A stretch of 54,261 nt of DNA, from the NCBI GenBank assembly GCA_025458245.1, contig JALOSW010000001.1, positions 1 through 54,261 of the forward strand, written 5' to 3'. This DNA is from Burkholderiales bacterium (GTDB lineage: Bacteria; Pseudomonadota; Gammaproteobacteria; Burkholderiales; SG8-39). Below the pieces are notes generated by a model that was given only the letters and a program-made list of their open reading frames with translations, searched no databases and was not told the origin of the DNA. Shown here in pieces: positions 4,317 through 50,257 of this stretch (position 1 is its first letter; each line of letters starts with the position of its first letter). A program made the translations under genes and the position numbers.

Positions 4317-6477
<2,161 letters not shown>

Positions 6478-6520: not shown

Positions 6521-6607
6521 GCCGAGATGGCGGAATTGGTAGACGCACTAGGTTCAGGTCCTAGCGCCCGCGAGGGTGTGGAGGTTCGAGTCCTCTTCTC
6601 GGCACCA
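6521..6607 (+). tRNA. tRNA-Leu (anticodon CAG), class II with long variable arm and encoded CCA
   Basis: GCCGAGATGGCGGAATTGGTAGACGC...CTAGG-TTCAGGT-CCTAG...GGTTCGAGTCC...CTCGGCACCA. The cloverleaf was folded by eye. Confidence 0.9.
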
Positions 6608-29138: not shown

Positions 29139-29774
29139 TCAGTACTCGACGGGCACCGGATCGAGGCTGCGCCACAGATACCAGGTCGCGACCGAGCGCC
29201 AGGGCGCCCACGCACCGCCGAACGCACGCAGCTCGGCGGCGCCGATCGGCTCGCCGCCGCGGTAATGCAGGCTGACCGCCTTGCGCAAGCCGAGGTCGTC
29301 GACCGGCAGAACGTCCGGCCGCAGGAGGTTGAAGATGAGGAACATTTCGGCCGTCCAGCGGCCGATGCCGCGCACCGCTACCAACTCGCCGATCACCGCC
29401 TCGTCGTCCATCGCGGGCCACCGCTGCGGATGAAGGGTGCCGCCCCGGAAACGCGCGGCGAGGTCGCGGATGTACTCGACCTTGCGCCGGGACAGCCCTG
29501 CGCGCGCGAGACGGTCGCGGCGCACGCGCAGAATCGCGTCCGGCGTCATCGCGGGCGCGACCGCGACCAGCCGCCCCCAGACGCTGTCGGCGGCCTTCAC
29601 CGAGATCTGCTGCCCGACGATCGAGCGCGCGAGCGTCTGGAACGGGTCGCCCCGGGTCCGCAGGCGCACGCGCGGATGGGCGCGAATGATGTCCCCGAGC
29701 ACGGGATCGCGCCGGGCAAGGGTGCGCCTGGCGCTCGCCCAGTACGGCGGATGCGCCGGGGCATTGCCGATCAC
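29139..29774 (-). CDS. alkA: DNA-3-methyladenine glycosylase II-like (HhH-GPD family, AlkA-like)
   Basis: 211 aa from a GTG at 29774 that overlaps the stop of the upstream gene (GTGA). HhH motif VAVRGIGRWTAEMFLIF and catalytic-Asp context PVDDLGLRKA. Confidence 0.8.
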   Translation of the reverse strand: MIGNAPAHPPYWASARRTLARRDPVLGDIIRAHPRVRLRTRGDPFQTLARSIVGQQISVKAADSVWGRLVAVAPAMTPDAILRVRRDRLARAGLSRRKVEYIRDLAARFRGGTLHPQRWPAMDDEAVIGELVAVRGIGRWTAEMFLIFNLLRPDVLPVDDLGLRKAVSLHYRGGEPIGAAELRAFGGAWAPWRSVATWYLWRSLDPVPVEY

Positions 29775-30826
29775 GAGACCGATGCGAGCGGCAGGTTGAG
29801 CAGGAGGTTCTGCGGCTTCATCCGGACGATGCCCTCCTCGTCCATCGACAGCGCCAGGTAGACCGGCTTGCCCGCGATGTCCGGGCGCATCACCTGCGGG
29901 TCGGCGAACTCCATCCGGAAGAGCCCGAGCACCCGCTGCATCCGGCCGGGCTCCACGTCCTCTCCGTTCCAGAGATCGTTCAGCAGTCCCGTCGACTGCG
30001 CGTCGAGGCCGATGTGCCAAGCCCAGCGCTCGTCGGCGATCGACTGCAGCGATTCGACCCGCACCGCCGCACCGGTGAAATGCGCGATCCACTTCTCGAC
30101 CAGACGGCAGAACGCGCGGGTCGCGGCGCGGCCATGGTTGAGACTCATCACGAAGTCGTGCCGCTGGTCGCGCAGCCAGTACATGTGCGCGTTCTCGGCG
30201 TCGAGGACATCGAGGTTGACCGCCTTCATCGGCGTCTGCGCCTCGACGATCAGCCGCCCGAGGCTGCCATAGGCGCCGCCGGTGGCATGCATCTCGACCG
30301 TCTCGCGATCGGCGAGCATCACCGCGCCGTCCGCGACGTTCGCCTTCTGTTCACGATAGAACAGTTCGCCGGCGCGCGCCTCCAGCGGGTCGTCGGTGCC
30401 CTCGAGGATATTGCGCACGATGATCTGCGCGAGCTGGTCGAGAAAAAGAGGCGGCACGCTGACGTTGCCCTCGCGGAAGATCGCCGCGTAGCACGCCTCC
30501 ACGGTCGGCGCCGCCATCAGCCGCCGCCGAAAGTCGAGCAGCACGCCATAGTTGAAGCGCGTGTCCTCGTCCTCGATCGCCGCAATATCGCCCTCGGTCA
30601 CCGCGCGGCGGGGATCGGCCATGAGCGACTCGTGCAGCGCGATCTCGCCCGGGCCCGACTCCTCGACCGGGCGGATCTCGGGGCGGGCGAGGTAGGCACG
30701 GAAGAAATCGTCGGTCGCGACGAGCTTGCCGTCGGCGTCGCGCACGAGCAGGTGGAACCCCGAATTTCTCCAGAAGTCCGGCATGGATCCGTGCAGGATT
30801 TCAGCCGGCCGCTGGCGCGTAGGCAT
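29771..30826 (-). CDS. Conserved hypothetical protein, no recognisable catalytic motif
   Basis: 351-aa ORF with coding-like composition. The ATG at 30826 overlaps the HNH gene by 26 nt. An ATG at 30784 (MPDFWRNSGF) is an alternative start. Confidence 0.6.
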   Translation of the reverse strand: MPTRQRPAEILHGSMPDFWRNSGFHLLVRDADGKLVATDDFFRAYLARPEIRPVEESGPGEIALHESLMADPRRAVTEGDIAAIEDEDTRFNYGVLLDFRRRLMAAPTVEACYAAIFREGNVSVPPLFLDQLAQIIVRNILEGTDDPLEARAGELFYREQKANVADGAVMLADRETVEMHATGGAYGSLGRLIVEAQTPMKAVNLDVLDAENAHMYWLRDQRHDFVMSLNHGRAATRAFCRLVEKWIAHFTGAAVRVESLQSIADERWAWHIGLDAQSTGLLNDLWNGEDVEPGRMQRVLGLFRMEFADPQVMRPDIAGKPVYLALSMDEEGIVRMKPQNLLLNLPLASVS

Positions 30827-31394
30827 CCAGCACGCGGCTCCCCGAGGCCACGTGCGGGACCAGGAACTCCATCTGATCCGAGAGGATCTTCCGGTTGGTG
30901 AGGATGAGGTACTCGGCCTTGTTCGGCACGTACGGGGCGTAGAGAAGTTCGATGCCCGCCTCTTCCGGCGTGCGGTTCCGCTTCATGCCGTTGCAGTGGC
31001 GGCAGGCCGTGACGACGTTCATCCAGCCGTCGCGGCCGCCGCGCGACAGCGGCAGGATGTGGTCGCGCGTGAGCCGGAAGTAGGAGAACTCGCCGCCGCA
31101 ATAGGCGCAGATCTGGCGATCACGGCGGAACAGCTCGCGGTTGGAGAGCGGCGGAATCTGGTGGAAGCCCTTCATCGCCATCGCTCGGCCCCGTATCGCC
31201 ATGATCGAGTGCCCGCTGATGGAAGAGCGCTGCCCGGTCGCGCGCGATACGCCGCCGTAAACCGTGAACGCGACTTCACCGAGCGTCCAGGCGACCAGGT
31301 TCTTGGCGTAGTAAAAGCAGGCCTGTTGCCACGTGACCCAGCGGTGCGGGACACCGTGCGAGTCGAGGGTGAGGATCAGCGGCGGCTCGGCCAT
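30801..31394 (-). CDS. HNH endonuclease family protein
   Basis: 197 aa. The motif is CAYCGGEF...DHILPLSRGG...NVVTACRHCNGMKRNR. Confidence 0.85.
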   Translation of the reverse strand: MAEPPLILTLDSHGVPHRWVTWQQACFYYAKNLVAWTLGEVAFTVYGGVSRATGQRSSISGHSIMAIRGRAMAMKGFHQIPPLSNRELFRRDRQICAYCGGEFSYFRLTRDHILPLSRGGRDGWMNVVTACRHCNGMKRNRTPEEAGIELLYAPYVPNKAEYLILTNRKILSDQMEFLVPHVASGSRVLDAYAPAAG

Positions 31395-31527: not shown

Positions 31528-32382
31528 TCAGTTCAGGGCCGACGCGAGCTGCCGCCGATACTCGCGCACGAGGTCCGGATCACCCGAGGCGAGGCTGAAG
31601 ACGCGGAGCAGCGTCTGCCGCGCCTGCTCGCGCAATGCGCCGCGGTCGCGCCGGACGACTTCGAGCAGCTCTTTCATGGCCGATTCGTAGCGGGCTTCGA
31701 CCGCGAGGCGTTCGCCGAGTGCGAGGCGCGCGCCGAGGTCGGCGGGATCTGCAGCAATGCGGTCGGCGAGCGCGTCGGCCGACGGGAGGCCCTGCACGGT
31801 GCGCCAGCCCGCGACGCGCGCGCGCAGTGCGTCGAGCCGGTCGCTCGACTCGTACTCGGGCACCTTGGCGATCGCCTCCTCGGCGCCCGCCATGTCGCCG
31901 CGCGCCGCGAGCAGCTCGGCGAGCTCCAGGCGTGCCGCTGCGCTCGCGGGCTCCAGCGAGATCGCGTCGCGCAGCTTCGCCTCGGCGTCCTCGAAATCGC
32001 CTTCGGCCAGGGCCTGCGCTGCGGCACGGCGGAGTTTCTCCGCCTTTGAGGGCACGAGTGAGTCGAGGAACGCGCGCACGCCCGACTCAGGCAGCGCGCC
32101 GACGAACTCGTTCGCCACCTCGCCGTCCACGAACGCCTTGACGTTCGGGATGCCGCGGACGCCGTATCGGGCGGCCGGCTCGGGGTGCTCGTCGGTGTTC
32201 AGCTTGACGAGGACGAATTTTCCGGCGTACTCCTTCGCGAGCTTCTCGAGAATCGGCTTCAGCACGCGGCACGGGCCGCACCACGGGGCCCAGAAGTCCA
32301 CGACGACGGGCTGGGTTCGGGATGCTTCGATCACGTCGCGCTCGAACATGTCGGCGGTGGTGTCGATGGAAACGGCCGTCAT
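31528..32382 (-). CDS. Thioredoxin-domain plus TPR protein (YbbN/CnoX-like architecture, with intact WCGPC)
   Basis: 284 aa. N-terminal VVVDFWAPWCGPCRVLKP followed by a helical TPR-like C-terminal half. Confidence 0.85.
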   Translation of the reverse strand: MTAVSIDTTADMFERDVIEASRTQPVVVDFWAPWCGPCRVLKPILEKLAKEYAGKFVLVKLNTDEHPEPAARYGVRGIPNVKAFVDGEVANEFVGALPESGVRAFLDSLVPSKAEKLRRAAAQALAEGDFEDAEAKLRDAISLEPASAAARLELAELLAARGDMAGAEEAIAKVPEYESSDRLDALRARVAGWRTVQGLPSADALADRIAADPADLGARLALGERLAVEARYESAMKELLEVVRRDRGALREQARQTLLRVFSLASGDPDLVREYRRQLASALN

Positions 32383-32468
32383 GGCATTGCTCCTGCCGGT
32401 TTGTACTTCAAGGAAGTTGCGGCGTGCCGGCCGCGTTTCAAGGTCGCGTGCCGTCTTTCGGCAGCCCT

Positions 32469-32617: not shown

Positions 32618-33013
32618 ATGAGCGCCCTCACCCAGACCCAGATCGAGATGCTCAAGGAGCGCATGCTGACCCGGCGCGGCGAACTCGTCACCGAAATCAA
32701 GGACAAGCTCGCGGAGAGCCGCGAGCACTCGAGCCTCACCACGCTCGAGCAGCGCCTGGAAGGCGGCGACTCCGCGCTCGCGGATCTCATCGCCTCCACC
32801 GACATGGCGATGGTGCGGCGCGACGTCGAAGAGATGCGCGAGATCGACGCGGCGATCGGACGGATCGAATCGCGCGCCTACGGCGACTGCGCGGAATGCG
32901 GCGAGCCGATCGCGTTCGCGCGCCTCGAAGCCGAGCCCACCGCGACGCGCTGCGTGCGCGACCAGGAGCGATGGGAGCGGGAACACGGCAAAGGGCCCGG
33001 TCACTCGCTCTAG
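32618..33013 (+). CDS. DksA/TraR-family zinc-finger protein with a degenerate (3-Cys) finger
   Basis: 131 aa, coiled-coil N-terminus, then CAEC-N17-CVRD (the fourth Cys is replaced by Asp). Confidence 0.75.
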   Translation: MSALTQTQIEMLKERMLTRRGELVTEIKDKLAESREHSSLTTLEQRLEGGDSALADLIASTDMAMVRRDVEEMREIDAAIGRIESRAYGDCAECGEPIAFARLEAEPTATRCVRDQERWEREHGKGPGHSL

Positions 33014-33151
33014 CGTGCCGAGGCGACGCCGGCGCGCCCGGCATCGCGGGATCGACGACGTTCCTGTCGAAATCGGAACACGCCGCGCGGCGCTCCCGCG
33101 TGCATAGTTCTCGCGCGTCGCCCGCGCGCAGCCGTCTCGCGCTAAGGAGAC

Positions 33152-33179
33152 AAAAAAAACGGCCGATCGCTCGGCCGTT
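33152..33179 (-). terminator. Rho-independent terminator (liv operon and candidate sRNA)
   Basis: Minus strand reads ACGGCCGA-GCGA-TCGGCCGT followed by TTTTTTT. Confidence 0.8.
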
Positions 33180-33224
33180 CAGAAGACTTTCACCCCAAAG
33201 GAGGAGGAAAAACAGGCGAAAGTA
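33152..33224 (-). ncRNA. Candidate small RNA of about 70 nt with a CCUCCUCC anti-SD loop
   Basis: On the minus strand a stem ACUUUC/GAAAGU encloses the loop GCCUGUUUUUCCUCCUCCUUUGGGGU. The intrinsic terminator follows directly, and a sigma-54-type promoter lies just upstream. The 5' end is predicted from promoter geometry only. Confidence 0.45.
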
Positions 33225-33234
33225 CTCTTCATCT

Positions 33235-33250
33235 AGCAGCTAGCGTGCCA
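33235..33250 (-). promoter_or_regulatory. Sigma-54 (-24/-12) type promoter
   Basis: Minus strand reads TGGCACGCTAGCTGCT versus consensus TGGCACG-N4-TTGCW. GG and GC are correctly spaced, with one mismatch in the -12 T. Confidence 0.55.
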
Positions 33251-33399
33251 GTCGAGCGCGTCGCCGTGCGCCGTCTCGCATCGGCGGGAAATTCGTCACG
33301 AATCAAAGCGCCGCTGCAGCGGAAGCCGCTGCAACCGGCTGGTTGTGCCGCGCCACGGCGGGGCAGCGAGGCGGCGCGGTGCACCGCGCCGGGGCCAGC

Positions 33400-34104
33400 T
33401 CAGAGGCCGAGATATGCCTGGCGGACGCGGTCGTCGGCGAGCAGCTCGGCGCCGCTGCCTTCCATCACCACGCGGCCGTTCTCGAGCACGTAGGCGCGGC
33501 TCGCGAGCTTGAGCGACACCGCCACGTTCTGCTCGACGAGCACCACCGTGATGCCGCGCCGGTTGAGCGCGACGATGGTGCGGAACACCTCCTGCACGAC
33601 GGCCGGCGCGAGGCCGAGCGAGGGCTCGTCGAACATGACGAGCTCGGGCTGCCCCATCAGGCAGCGCCCGATCGCGAGCATCTGCTGCTCGCCGCCCGAC
33701 AGCGTGCCAGCCGCCTGCTTCTCGCGCTCCTTCAGTCGCGGGAAGAGCGCGAACACCTCGTCGACCGTCGCGCGCGCCTTCGCCCGTGCGCGCGGCACGA
33801 GCCCGCCGACTTCAAGGTTCTCGCGCACCGAAAGGGTCGGGAACACCTGCCGCCCTTCGGCCACCTGCCCGACGCCGAGATCGACCACGGCATGGCTGGG
33901 CAGCCCTGCGATGTCCTTGCCGCGAAAGCGGATCGTCCCCGACCGCGGCGTCTCGATGCCCGCGATGGTGCGGATGAGGCTCGTCTTGCCCGCGCCGTTC
34001 GAGCCGACGATCGCGACGATCGCGCCCTCGTCGACCGAGAGCGAGACCCGGTCGAGCGCCTGCGCGTCGCCGTAGAAGAGATCGAGGTCGCGGACTTCGA
34101 GCAT
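33400..34104 (-). CDS. livF: Branched-chain amino acid-type ABC transporter ATP-binding protein LivF
   Basis: 234 aa from MLEVRDLDLFYG. GSNGAGKTS, LSGGEQQML. The track start at 34134 would run into the repeat element. Confidence 0.88.
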   Translation of the reverse strand: MLEVRDLDLFYGDAQALDRVSLSVDEGAIVAIVGSNGAGKTSLIRTIAGIETPRSGTIRFRGKDIAGLPSHAVVDLGVGQVAEGRQVFPTLSVRENLEVGGLVPRARAKARATVDEVFALFPRLKEREKQAAGTLSGGEQQMLAIGRCLMGQPELVMFDEPSLGLAPAVVQEVFRTIVALNRRGITVVLVEQNVAVSLKLASRAYVLENGRVVMEGSGAELLADDRVRQAYLGL

Positions 34105-34119
34105 GTCGGCTAGAGCCTC

Positions 34120-34272
34120 ACCGCAAAGGCGCAAAGGGCGCCAAGGGACGCGACAGAAGCGGTGCGCTGGTCGCAGCGCGTCCGAAGGCCTTGCCGGCTA
34201 TGCGGGCGCGTTCCCCGGCACGGCGCGCACTCGGCCCTTTGCGAATCTTTGCGCCCTTTGCGCCTTTGCGGT
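34120..34272. repeat. Inverted-repeat intergenic element, copy B, inserted between livG and livF
   Basis: Perfect 21-bp arms: CCGCAAAGGCGCAAAGGGCGC (34121-34141) and GCGCCCTTTGCGCCTTTGCGG (34251-34271). The arms extend imperfectly. Same family and same orientation as copy A. Confidence 0.75.
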
Positions 34273-37125: not shown

Positions 37126-38388
37126 TCACGCCTTCTTGTACTCGGGTTGCGGGAAGACCGGCTTCGCCTGGGCGCTCTCGCCCGGCAGCACGACCTTGGG
37201 CTGCTGGTCGAGGTTCTGGATCGCCGCCGAGGCGATGCCTTCGACCTGCCCCTTCGCGTTGAACTTGATCGGGCCGCCGATCATCATGCGCGTCCTGATG
37301 TCGGTGGCGCGAATCGCGTCGGCGAGCGCTTTCCCGGCAGTCGAGCCGGCACGCTTGTACGCGTCGGCGGCGATCATCATCGCCTCGAACGAGAACCCGA
37401 CGTTGAGGGCGTGGAACATCATCTTGTCCTGCGGGTACGCCTTCGCGAACGCAGCCTCGACCTTCGCCGTCACCGGCGACTTCGGGTTGTACCAGGGCAC
37501 GTTGGAAATCGCGTAGTCGGAGAGCTTGCCGAGCGCCTTGAAGTACTGGGACTCGTACATGCCGGGGTTGCCCGGGCCGATGATGCCCATCGGGTTCCAG
37601 CGCTGCTTCACCATTTCGCGGCGCAGCAGGATGGCGTCGTTCAGACGGCAGACCAGCATCAGGAAATCGGCGTTCGTGGCCTTCGCCTTGGCGACCTCGA
37701 CCGACAGATCCTTCGCGGCCGGGTCGTAGGAGATCGTTTCCACCACCTTGAACGGCAGATAGTTGAGCGTCGGCAGGATGGCGTCGATCGCCTTTCGGTT
37801 CGCCTGGCCGAAGGTGTCGTTCACATGCATGAACACGGCCGTGCGCGGCGCCGTGTTCGTCGCCTGGAAGAGATCGCGCATCAGGCCGAGGCCGTTCCGC
37901 ACCAGATCGACGCTGGTCGGGAAGTTGCGGAACGTGAACTTGTAGCCCTGCTCGGTGATCTGCGGCGCGGCCGCGATGTTGATGATGAACGGCACGCCCT
38001 TCTGCTCCGCGACCTGCGCGATCGCGCCCGCCGCGCCCGAGTCGAACGGCCCGACCAGGACGTTCGCGCCCTCGGCGATCAGCTTCTCGGCGCGGGAACG
38101 CGCCACGTCCACGTTCGTCTCGGTGTCGGCGAACATCACTTTCATCGGCGCCGCATAGCCGAGCTCCGAGAGCACCGCCGGCGCGATGTCGATGCCGAGC
38201 TTGCACGACTGGCCGATCAGCGCCTGCACGCCCGACACCGGCAGCAGCACGCCGACGTTCAGCGGACCGGACTGCGCCCGGACGATCGCCGGGAACGGCA
38301 GCGCGGCGAGCGCGGTCGCACCCGCAGCAGCCTTGATCAGACGCCGGCGCGAGGGCGCGGCAACGCGGTGGGAATCGGCCATGGTCAT
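37126..38388 (-). CDS. Periplasmic substrate-binding protein (LivJ/K-type) with Tat-like signal peptide
   Basis: 420 aa from MTMADSH. RBS GAGGAGG. Twin-arginine motif SRRRLIKAAAGATALAA. The specific ligand is not inferable. Confidence 0.8.
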   Translation of the reverse strand: MTMADSHRVAAPSRRRLIKAAAGATALAALPFPAIVRAQSGPLNVGVLLPVSGVQALIGQSCKLGIDIAPAVLSELGYAAPMKVMFADTETNVDVARSRAEKLIAEGANVLVGPFDSGAAGAIAQVAEQKGVPFIINIAAAPQITEQGYKFTFRNFPTSVDLVRNGLGLMRDLFQATNTAPRTAVFMHVNDTFGQANRKAIDAILPTLNYLPFKVVETISYDPAAKDLSVEVAKAKATNADFLMLVCRLNDAILLRREMVKQRWNPMGIIGPGNPGMYESQYFKALGKLSDYAISNVPWYNPKSPVTAKVEAAFAKAYPQDKMMFHALNVGFSFEAMMIAADAYKRAGSTAGKALADAIRATDIRTRMMIGGPIKFNAKGQVEGIASAAIQNLDQQPKVVLPGESAQAKPVFPQPEYKKA

Positions 38389-38524
38389 CCTCCTCGGGAA
38401 CGGTTCTCGGTCGAGCGCGCCCGGTCCGGCACGCCTTGTTCTGCGCGGGATTCTCCCATCGCCCCCGCGGCCGCGCAATCGCCGCAGCGACGCGCTGGAA
38501 GGCGCGCTTGCCTATACTCGCCCC

Positions 38525-39124
38525 GTGGACACCCTCGAGCACATCGCACTCGCCGCCGGTCTGGCCTGGGGCAGCGGCATCCGGGTCTACGCCGTGATCT
38601 TCATTGCGGGCGGGCTCGCCTACCTGGGCGTCCTGCAGCTCCCGGACACGCTCGCGGTGCTCTCCCACCCCTGGGTGCTGCTCGCGTCGGGCTTCATGTT
38701 CTTCGTCGAGTTCCTCGCCGACAAGATTCCCGGCGTGGACAGCATGTGGGATGCGCTGCACACCTTCATCCGCATCCCGGCCGGCGCGTTCCTCGCCGCG
38801 GCGGCACTCGGTCAGGTGGATCCGGTGTGGGTCGCCGTCGCCGCGATCCTCGGCGGCGCGATCGCGTCGGGGAGCCACGCCGCGAAAGCCGGAGGCCGGG
38901 CGGTGATCAACACTTCGCCCGAGCCGGTGTCGAACTGGGTGGCGTCGTTCACCGAGGATCTCATCGTCCCCGCGGGCCTGCTCGCCGCGGTGAAGGCGCC
39001 GATCGCCTTTCTCGGGGCGCTGGCCGTCTTCCTCGGGCTCGTGATCTGGCTCGCGCCGAAGCTCTGGCGCGCGCTGAAGCGCATCGCAGGCCGGCTGACC
39101 GGCGAGGCCCGCGCCTCGAATTGA
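38525..39124 (+). CDS. Membrane protein (DUF4126-like)
   Basis: About 199 aa from a GTG at 38525, with four or five hydrophobic helices and FVEFLADKIPGVDSMWD. A TATACT -10-like hexamer lies upstream. The family assignment is from memory. Confidence 0.55.
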   Translation: MDTLEHIALAAGLAWGSGIRVYAVIFIAGGLAYLGVLQLPDTLAVLSHPWVLLASGFMFFVEFLADKIPGVDSMWDALHTFIRIPAGAFLAAAALGQVDPVWVAVAAILGGAIASGSHAAKAGGRAVINTSPEPVSNWVASFTEDLIVPAGLLAAVKAPIAFLGALAVFLGLVIWLAPKLWRALKRIAGRLTGEARASN

Positions 39125-48495: not shown

Positions 48496-48541
48496 GTCCG
48501 CCGGAGGAGGCTCGGCGCCGTATCGCGCAGCGCCAATCGAC

Positions 48542-50257
48542 ATGAGCATTGCCGACACGCGACCCTGGCTGCGGTTCTACGGGCGCGTCCCGCACCGTCT
48601 CGACTACCCGCAGGCGACGCTCTACGAGGCGCTCGCCCGGACCGCCGCACGCGTGCCCGATGCGATCGCGTGGGACTTCCTCGATACCGAGTCGACCTAT
48701 CGCGATTTTCTCGCGGCGATCGACCATTGCGCCGACGCGCTCGCCGCGCTCGGGCTCGGCACGGGCGACCGGATCCTCGTCTCCATGCCGACTTCGCCGC
48801 AGGGCATCATCGCCTTCTACGCCGCGAACAAGCTCGGCGCCGTGCCGGCGATGATCCATCCGCTCTCCACCGGACCCGAGATCGAGCATTACCTCGACGC
48901 GAGCGGCGCACGCATCGCCCTCACGCTCGATGCGTTCTATCGCGTATTCGCCGGACTGAAACCCCGCATCCCGCTCGACACGCTCCTCCTCGCGCGCATC
49001 CCCGACTATCTCTCGCCGCTCAAGAAGTTCGGGTTCTGGCTCGCCAAGGGCCGCAAGATCCCTGCCGTCCCCGCAGACCCGCGGGTGCGCTGGTGGTCCG
49101 ACGTGATGGGCGGCACCTACCCGGCGGCGCCGCGCGCGGCAACGACCACGGACGATCCCGCGGCCATCCTTTTCTCCGGCGGCACGACCGGCGTGCCGAA
49201 AGGCATCCTGCTTTCCAGCCGGAACTTCATCGCCGAAGGGATGCAGGCGGCGGCTTGGGGCGGCATGACCCAGAGCGACGCGATTCTCGCGATCCTGCCG
49301 ATCTTTCACGGCTTCGGGCTCGGCGTGTGCGTCAACGCGGCGTTCATGGCCGGCGGCAAGTCGATCCTCGTGCCGATATTCGACGCAGCGACCGTGGCGA
49401 AGCTCCTCAGGACGAAGCGCCCCAACCTGCTGGTGGGCGTGCCGACGCTCTACGACGCGCTCTCGAAGGATCCGTCGCTCGCCAAGTCCGACCTCTCGTG
49501 CCTGCATGCGACGTTCTCGGGGGCAGATACCCTGCCCCGCCCGGTGAAGGAACGGTTCGAGACGCTGGTGGCGGAGCGCGGCGGCAAGGTGAAGCTCCTC
49601 GAGGGCTACGGGCTCACCGAAGCCGTCACGGCGATCATGGCGACCCCGCTCGACGAGTATCGCGAAGGCTCGATCGGCATCCCGTTCCCGGACATGCTCG
49701 CGAAAGTCTGCCGACCCGGGACGACGGAGGAGCTCCCGCCCGGCGCCGAAGGCGAGATCTGCGTCGCCGGCCCTGCGGTGATGCTCGGCTATCTCGACGA
49801 TCCGGAAGCGACGGCCGCGACGCTGAAGACCCACCCCGACGGCCGGACGTGGCTGCACACCGGCGATCTCGGCAAAGTGGACGCCGACGGCTTCTTTTAC
49901 TTCACGGTGCGGGCGAAGCGGATGATCAAGTCGTCGGGCTTCAACGTCTATCCGGCGCAGGTCGAGGCGGTGCTCTACAAGCACCCGCTCGTCGCGGAGG
50001 CGTGCGTGGTGGGCGTGCCGGATCCGTCCCAGGTCGAGCGCGTGAAGGCGTACGTGGTGCTCAAGGATGCCTCGCAGGCCGGGCCCGCCGCGGAGCAGGC
50101 GCTGATCGAACATTGCCGGCAGCAGCTCATCAAGTGGTCGTGCCCGCGCGAGGTCGAGTTCAAGGCCGAGCTGCCGAAAACGCGGGTCGGCAAGATCGAT
50201 TACAGGATGCTCGTCGAGGAGCATGTCGCCCGCGAGGGCAGGAAGGAAAGCGCGTGA
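48542..50257 (+). CDS. AMP-dependent acyl-CoA synthetase/ligase
   Basis: 571 aa from [32 protein letters not shown]...DGFFYF..R.K. The upstream part of the track ORF is an extension. Confidence 0.88.

Follow-up and report, generated by a model that had tools for sequence, protein, structure and literature searches.

The stretch of DNA analyzed here, hereafter the window, comprises 54,261 nucleotides of a Burkholderiales bacterium (GTDB SG8-39; assembly GCA_025458245.1, contig JALOSW010000001.1, positions 1-54,261, forward strand). Between livF, the last gene of an operon encoding a liv-type ATP-binding cassette (ABC) transporter, and a convergent gene encoding a DksA/TraR-like protein, it carries a candidate gene for a small RNA (sRNA), in which a sigma-54-type promoter is combined with an anti-Shine-Dalgarno motif placed in a hairpin loop. 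All coordinates are those of the forward strand, while the sRNA locus is read on the minus strand. The locus has the following features:

33286-33299, minus strand: candidate activator site GTGACGAATTTCCC, a one-mismatch copy of GTGA-N6-TCAC centered at -68.5
33235-33250, minus strand: sigma-54-type -24/-12 promoter TGGCACGCTAGCTGCT, with GG at 33249-33248 and GC at 33237-33236
33152-33224, minus strand: predicted sRNA of approximately 73 nt, which begins at the inferred start and includes the whole U-run
33186-33223, minus strand: hairpin 1, with arms ACUUUCGCC (33223-33215) and GGUGAAAGU (33194-33186) and loop UGUUUUUCCUCCUCCUUUGG
33200-33207, minus strand: anti-Shine-Dalgarno core CCUCCUCC, unpaired in the loop of hairpin 1
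33152-33180, minus strand: intrinsic terminator GAACGGCCGA-GCGA-UCGGCCGUUU ending in a U-run with a total of 8 U, found by a terminator scan

Read from 33250 to 33151 on the minus strand, the locus runs TGGCACGCTAGCTGCT AGATGAAGAG UACUUUCGCC UGUUUUUCCUCCUCCUUUGG GGUGAAAGU CUUCU GAACGGCCGA GCGA UCGGCCGUUU UUUUU G. An earlier note on this DNA had described an AT-rich island with a near-consensus sigma-54 promoter on the minus strand and a predicted transcription start near 33224, and each of these points was borne out. The G+C content is 0.51 at 33150-33249 compared with 0.69 in the whole window. The promoter TGGCACGCTAGCTGCT departs from the consensus TGGCACG-N4-TTGCW at one base (C for the first T of TTGC) and keeps the exact GG-N10-GC spacing, with GG and GC 10 bases apart within an element of the TGGCAC-N5-TTGC(A/T) type, at -24/-12 from the inferred start; the pattern TGGCACNNNNNYTGCT has one match in the 54-kb window, whereas 0.06 would be expected. 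When the C of the GC is set at -12, position +1 falls at 33224. Reading the same element as a sigma-70 promoter was rejected: TGGCAC matches TTGACA at only two of six positions, and the region corresponding to -10 belongs to the variable part of the alignment of relatives described below.

The 79-nt stretch 3' of the promoter folds into two hairpins with a free energy of -32.4 kcal/mol (z = -4.66), a value reached by none of 200 shuffled sequences. Hairpin 1 had been described in the earlier note with a 6-bp stem and a 26-nt loop; the hairpin itself is present, but its stem, ACUUUCGCC(U)/(G)GGUGAAAGU, comprises 9-10 pairs, so the loop is shortened to 18-20 nt. Likewise, the strong intrinsic terminator proposed there was found by the scan, with a U-run of eight rather than seven. 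A small peptide encoded at the locus was also considered and rejected: the predicted sRNA contains no AUG, and the one start-like codon, GUG, opens a frame of four codons that lacks a ribosome-binding site (RBS).

Relatives of the locus were gathered in three ways, namely by an exact search with the 20-nt loop against one genome per GTDB species, with a degenerate hairpin pattern, and through a conserved HNH endonuclease gene located nearby. The exact loop search returned 35 loci, approximately 31 of them in metagenome-assembled genomes (MAGs) of Burkholderiales or Betaproteobacteria; all searches pooled gave approximately 42 distinct copies in approximately 40 species-level genomes, all of them uncultured Burkholderiales or Betaproteobacteria MAGs, with no named cultured genus among the hosts. 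These bacteria come from soils, sediments, groundwater, wetlands, and lakes, and the window sequence itself was found in wetland metagenomes. Each genome yielded one match, including a genome with a 2.7-Mb contig, a copy number on which the incompleteness of MAGs leaves some doubt. No family copies were found in plasmid records or viral contigs, and thus nothing points to a mobile element.

Whether the promoter element is conserved in relatives, a point on which the earlier note had let its prediction stand or fall, could be checked directly. Its defining bases, TGGCA(C/T)-N5-NTGC(T/A/C), are kept in every family member with available upstream sequence, while the N5 segment varies freely, and 13-15 nt separate the promoter GC from the first C of CUUUCGCC across the family. 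Among 68 sigma-54-like 16-mers in 1.31 Mb of collected loci, 62 lie directly before the sRNA. Contigs of relatives that are identical to the window over exactly 33152-33223/33224 differ from it, or are unrelated to it, outside this block; conservation therefore starts at the predicted +1 and ends with the U-run. With R1, a covariance model built on hairpin 1, the window copy reaches 64.9 bits (E = 2e-15), and nothing else in the window is matched.

In the family alignment, 97.9% of hairpin 1 cells are paired, compared with 36-56% when the partners are slid against each other. Compensatory changes were seen: two members have U-A in place of C-G, two have A-U in place of G-U, and in L056, the most diverged member, a G-U pair is replaced by G-C. 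The covariation appears real but thin, because most of the stem is invariant; the whole 20-nt loop and most of the hairpin 1 stem are nearly invariant across the family, although the conservation of the loop is partly fixed by the way the copies were searched out. The terminators form 34 distinct hairpins among 39 members, all of them G+C-rich stems followed by U-runs. As the earlier note had proposed for the window copy, the loop carries an anti-Shine-Dalgarno motif: minimum-energy folding leaves the CU-rich stretch with CCUCCUCC unpaired in 38 of the 39 members and partly paired in the remaining one (L031). This comparative conservation indicates a gene rather than a chance pattern, and the locus very probably represents a functional sRNA gene. 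In two relatives (L028, 4415-4600; L044, approximately 4318-4461), an intact sRNA gene is preceded by a tandem duplication of approximately 75 bp that comprises the candidate activator site, the sigma-54 promoter, and the beginning of the hairpin.

Upstream of the promoter, GTG-N8-CAC is found at -125 to -45 in 25 of 40 distinct loci, whereas 0.84 would be expected (1000 shuffles, maximum 4). The palindrome has the consensus (C/T)GTGA(C/A)-N4-(G/T)TCAC(G/A), and its centers lie at -57.5/-58.5, -68.5/-69.5, -78.5, -86.5/-87.5, and -99.5, that is, approximately one helical turn apart; several loci carry two palindromes 30 bp apart. In several loci only 10-20 nt separate it from the livF stop codon, so that it is often the sole intergenic element to be conserved. 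The phased GTGA-N6-TCAC element is thus likely to be the putative site of an enhancer-binding activator located on one face of the helix, and it also fits the CRP-type box TGTGA-N6-TCACA. Three loci lack GTGA-N6-TCAC and carry sites of the GGTGCA/TGCACC type instead, namely GGTGCA-N14-TGCACC in L019 and L021, and GTGCC-N6-GTGCAC with neighboring GGTGCG repeats in L015. These repeats recall NtrC half-sites, and the activator may have changed within the family.

The sRNA gene is surrounded by the following protein-coding genes, assigned by Pfam domains where a domain is named:

38525-39124, plus strand: DUF4126 membrane-protein gene, divergent from the transporter binding-protein gene, with its start at 38525
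33400-34134, minus strand: livF-like ABC ATPase gene (ABC_tran, BCA_ABC_TP_C), terminal in the liv-type operon and separated by 150 nt from the promoter downstream
32618-33013, plus strand: DksA/TraR zinc-finger gene, downstream of the sRNA gene and convergent with it
31528-32382, downstream of the sRNA gene: thioredoxin-tetratricopeptide repeat (thioredoxin-TPR, CnoX-like) gene
30801-31394, minus strand: HNH endonuclease gene, downstream of the sRNA gene
29771-30826, downstream of the sRNA gene: DUF6352 gene, overlapping the HNH gene by 26 nt

The liv-type transporter, encoded upstream on the same strand, comprises a Peripla_BP_6 binding protein (37126-38382), two permeases, and two ATPases. 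The earlier note had tied the sRNA to this operon. A livF orthologue does lie upstream of the sRNA gene in 25 of the 31 family loci in that comparison, but the association is looser than implied. Five cases (L001, L006/L038, L009, L022, and L032/L079) lack the liv operon; there, the divergent DUF4126 gene adjoins the sRNA gene, which keeps its sigma-54 promoter in all five and recognizable upstream sites in four (L001, L006, L009, and L022). The sRNA gene stands free there and is therefore not merely a 3' untranslated region (UTR) of the liv operon. The operon behaves as a 5-kb insertion/deletion between the DUF4126 gene and a free-standing sRNA gene. Where it is present, read-through from livF may add to the RNA pool, because the sRNA terminator is then the only strong one.

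The loop sequence UUUUUCCUCCUCCUUU is the complement of an extended RBS, and within it lies CCUCCUUU, which matches the 3' end of betaproteobacterial 16S rRNA. The best candidate target in the window is as follows:

38380-38395, minus strand: RBS GAGGAGG (38395-38389) and ATG (38382) of the liv-type binding-protein gene

Of all candidate starts in the window, this one offers the loop its longest contiguous complement, the 8-nt GAGGAGGA, 6 nt before the ATG at 38382; this agrees with the earlier identification of GAGGAGG at 38389-38395 as the RBS of this gene. In ten orthologous binding-protein genes, whose leaders otherwise diverge, 6-9 nt of (G)GAGGAG(G)(A) are retained. A conserved unpaired seed together with conserved complementary sites, both in the window and in the 10 orthologues, is what would be expected of a base-pairing sRNA, although this match is weakly specific because the target is a ribosome site. 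A second complement proposed earlier, GGAGGAGG in the leader of an acyl-CoA ligase gene, is present but at 48503-48510 rather than 48505-48512; it sits 32 nt before the ATG at 48543 and therefore belongs to the leader without being a normally spaced ribosome site. In the whole window, the 8-mer CCTCCTCC/GGAGGAGG occurs 7 times compared with 2.2 expected, and no shuffle reached 7.

These features suggest a mechanism in which RNA polymerase containing sigma-54 would bind the -24/-12 element at 33250-33235 and start near 33224 only upon activation by an enhancer-binding protein whose gene does not lie nearby; this activator would probably bind GTGA-N6-TCAC (33299-33286 in the window). The RNA would fold into two hairpins, the first exposing UUUUUCCUCCUCCUUU in its loop and the second serving as the terminator. 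The short U-rich spacer predicted before the terminator and the U-tail after it resemble those of many Hfq-dependent sRNAs and would fit an Hfq-type RNA. The CCUCCUCC loop, with its resemblance to the 3' end of 16S rRNA, would pair with extended RBSs of the GGAGGAGG type and block the initiation of translation, the adjacent liv-type binding-protein gene being the first candidate target. Since the sRNA is also found in lineages without an adjacent liv operon, it must have other targets as well. Transcription itself, its dependence on sigma-54 and an activator, the pairing, and the direction of the effect are what we infer from the conserved features, and we consider this mechanism as a whole, with the liv binding protein among the targets, to be reasonably probable. 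A broader proposal is put forward only tentatively, as possible but somewhat doubtful: that an activator recognizing GTGA-N6-TCAC would, together with sigma-54, switch on a single-copy mimic of the 16S rRNA 3' end, which would damp the mRNAs with the strongest RBSs (GGAGGAGG), liv-type uptake first. If this is true, the RNA would act as a brake on translation gated by sigma-54, for which no counterpart has been described among anti-Shine-Dalgarno sRNAs; those documented here are driven by sigma-70.

The earlier note had taken a sigma-54-driven member of this kind next to a liv-type transporter to be undescribed, and we likewise found no Rfam family or paper describing the sRNA; a literature search yielded nothing specific on such an sRNA in Burkholderiales. 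The covariance scan that the note had proposed gave no Rfam 15 match to the RNA at 33152-33224, permissive thresholds returning chance-level hits only (sroB with 26 bits, ylbH, and mmgR with 17-18 bits). The only recurring weak similarity was to MmgR (RF00519, alpha-r8), an RNA of approximately 77 nt with a UUUCCUCCCU motif before its terminator; its scores, 17.0 and 18.4 bits, are far below the gathering score of 41, and MmgR is alphaproteobacterial and does not carry the motif in the loop of the same hairpin.

Sigma-54-dependent sRNAs include GlmY/GlmZ with GlrR, Qrr1-5 with LuxO, CrcZ with CbrB, and NrsZ with NtrC. The window RNA shares with them the -24/-12 promoter and an upstream palindrome as a candidate activator site, but it shows no likeness to them in sequence or structure, and they act by protein titration or through other seeds, not through an RBS-complementary loop. 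Their activator sites (TGTC-N10-GACA, TTGCA-N3-TGCAA, TGTTAC-N14-GTAACA, and TGCACC-N5-GGTGCA) also differ from GTGA-N6-TCAC. DapZ and MicL are type I 3'UTR sRNAs with their own promoter, and DapZ targets ABC-transporter mRNAs. Like them, the window RNA immediately follows an operon on the same strand and shares with it the only strong terminator; unlike them, it has its promoter in the intergenic spacer rather than inside the upstream gene, and it stands alone in lineages without the adjacent operon. With the cuckoo/alpha-r14 sRNAs (CcsR1-4, NfeR1) it has in common an anti-Shine-Dalgarno motif of the CCUCCUCC type unpaired in a hairpin loop. The cuckoo/alpha-r14 RNAs are alphaproteobacterial, comprise three hairpins, each with CCUCCUCCC, occur in several copies, and have sigma-70 promoters (PMC10746234), whereas the window RNA has one hairpin with CCUCCUCCU, a plain terminator as its second hairpin, a single copy, and a sigma-54 promoter; no Rfam family of this group was among the matches for the window copy or two diverged members. 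The alpha-r14 sRNA NfeR1 silences mRNAs of ABC-transporter periplasmic binding proteins via its CCUCCUCCC motifs and is tied to nitrogen status (PMC10746234).

The closest known counterpart by taxonomy and architecture is the toxic small RNA family of Betaproteobacteria, RF02278, of which the window RNA might be a diverged member. In B. cenocepacia, ncS03, ncS05, ncS27, and ncS62 are double-hairpin RNAs of 57-92 nt whose CU-rich stretches are predicted to cover RBSs (PMC5688073); overexpression of NcS27 slows growth, and these RNAs are predicted or have been shown to damp transport and metabolism genes (PMC5688073, PMC10987360). The order Burkholderiales, the similar length, the RBS-complementary motif, and an architecture consisting of a first hairpin with a CU-rich loop followed by a terminator hairpin, which the window RNA also displays, would all agree with such membership. 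However, the RF02278 model (gathering score 50 bits) matched neither the window copy nor two diverged members even at E up to 10, while four genuine toxic small RNA loci used as positive controls (L144-L147, from plasmid records of Caballeronia, Burkholderia, and Paraburkholderia) scored 55.2-66.7 bits. In the RF02278 consensus, UGUCUCCUCC lies single-stranded on the 5' side and CUCCUC recurs in a loop of 7 nt, whereas the window RNA starts at the hairpin base and has a single motif in a loop of 18-20 nt. Burkholderia genomes carry 3-5 homologous toxic RNA copies (PMC5688073), and the four control loci have sigma-70-type promoters (TTGNNN-N16-18-TAtACT) without GG-N10-GC; the window RNA differs in its stems, in occurring once per genome (as far as incomplete MAGs allow this to be judged), in its neighbors, and in its sigma-54 promoter with an upstream palindrome. 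Membership in RF02278 is therefore unlikely, although distant common descent may connect the two, and sequence comparison indicates that the window RNA is a new sRNA family of a known kind, combining a sigma-54 promoter with an anti-Shine-Dalgarno loop. In one of the controls (L146, Paraburkholderia terrae plasmid pPT365), an H-NS family gene annotated at 337-660 of the locus begins inside the toxic small RNA (301-360; 55.2 bits); its start has probably been placed too far upstream.

Three further explanations assign the conserved hairpins another role. If the locus were only the 3' end of the liv operon, the hairpins would form the terminator region of the operon, the short RNA would be a processing product, and the promoter motif would be unused. 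The sRNA does lie on the same strand 150 nt after livF, as it does after livF in most of the loci compared; in several relatives the palindrome closely follows the livF stop codon with no further terminator in between, and contigs of RNA runs reach upstream of the predicted start. This explanation is nevertheless highly improbable: every member keeps the promoter bases amid sequence that varies, the gene and its promoter persist where the operon is absent, and conservation stops at the predicted +1. A mixed case, in which transcription from the RNA's own promoter is joined by read-through, as in type I 3'UTR sRNAs, is possible by analogy. If the locus were instead a leader or attenuator, driven by sigma-54, of the thioredoxin-TPR and HNH genes downstream and its terminator a regulated stop, this would account for the order sRNA/thioredoxin-TPR/HNH being the most conserved neighborhood and for the thioredoxin-TPR gene lying 100-280 nt 3' of the terminator on the same strand in approximately 11 loci. 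A convergent DksA/TraR-like gene or several kb intervene in the window and in about a dozen relatives, however, and the terminators are strong, variable in sequence, and without a conserved alternative pairing to hairpin 1, which makes a leader improbable. We are about equally skeptical of a decoy for a protein or the ribosome, such as an RNA titrating an RNA-binding protein that recognizes U/C-rich loops. The near-invariance of the 20-nt loop and most of the stem represents more constraint than a seed of 6-8 nt needs, as a decoy would predict, but known protein sponge RNAs carry many binding motifs and this RNA carries one, and the conserved complementary double ribosome site in the neighboring gene fits pairing.

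Several observations weigh against a sigma-54-driven, base-pairing sRNA. Among 80 loci sharing the conserved HNH gene, 52 lack an sRNA copy within the flanks examined. The palindrome in the window, GTGACGAATTTCCC, has a degenerate right half, as does, to a similar extent, that of the closest relative (L031), and searching the window and every family locus for the GAFTGA motif revealed no gene for an enhancer-binding protein. The loop is complementary to any strong ribosome site, a generic property that does not point to particular targets, and a scan of the window with the loop using RNAduplex gave uninformative, G+C-driven noise. The expression data consist of assembled contigs of public runs, which do not resolve transcript ends. 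In these contigs no transcript of the sRNA was seen, with standard libraries losing RNAs of 70 nt. Contigs of four wetland/sediment metatranscriptome runs matching this genome cover the DksA/TraR gene (32618-33013) at 100% identity, which is therefore transcribed in situ, and do not cover the sRNA. Metatranscriptome contigs containing sRNA orthologues span the promoter at a depth of 2-6 and show no 5' end; they could be read-through RNA or contaminating DNA.

sRNAs with RBS-complementary loops are known in Alphaproteobacteria and Burkholderia, and few sRNAs are known to be sigma-54-dependent; the family described here would join both properties. Its comparative record, comprising an invariant promoter, a phased upstream site, a covarying structure, and a conserved candidate target, is unusually clean for a lineage represented by metagenomes only. 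It offers an entry point to a signal that a sigma-54 activator would relay to translation in soil, sediment, and wetland bacteria, to the activator that may recognize GTGA-N6-TCAC, and to amino-acid-type ABC transporters as a potential general target class, and it would be a straightforward new entry for RNA family databases.

The surroundings of the sRNA gene contain several minor features. A perfect palindrome of 18 bp, GGCGCGGTGCACCGCGCC (33373-33390, minus strand), adjoins the livF stop codon on its 3' side and includes GGTGCACC; it is not kept in relatives and could represent either a protein site or a stem lacking a U-tail. A hairpin TGCAGCGGCTTCCGCTGCA followed by GCGGCGCUUUGAUU (33309-33333, minus strand) forms a weak terminator-like site between livF and the candidate activator site and may terminate liv transcription leakily. 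Another, weaker sigma-54-like 16-mer, TGGCATTGCTCCTGCC (32382-32397, plus strand), is located 220 nt upstream of the ATG of the DksA-like gene; it overlaps the start codon of the thioredoxin-TPR gene on the opposite strand and may be due to chance. The HNH gene shows 76-92% amino-acid identity across the 80 loci and keeps its position, a behavior that suits a housekeeping gene rather than a mobile nuclease. Elsewhere in the window, a tRNA gene with a long variable arm is located at 6521-6604 on the plus strand (Rfam tRNA, 54.3 bits).

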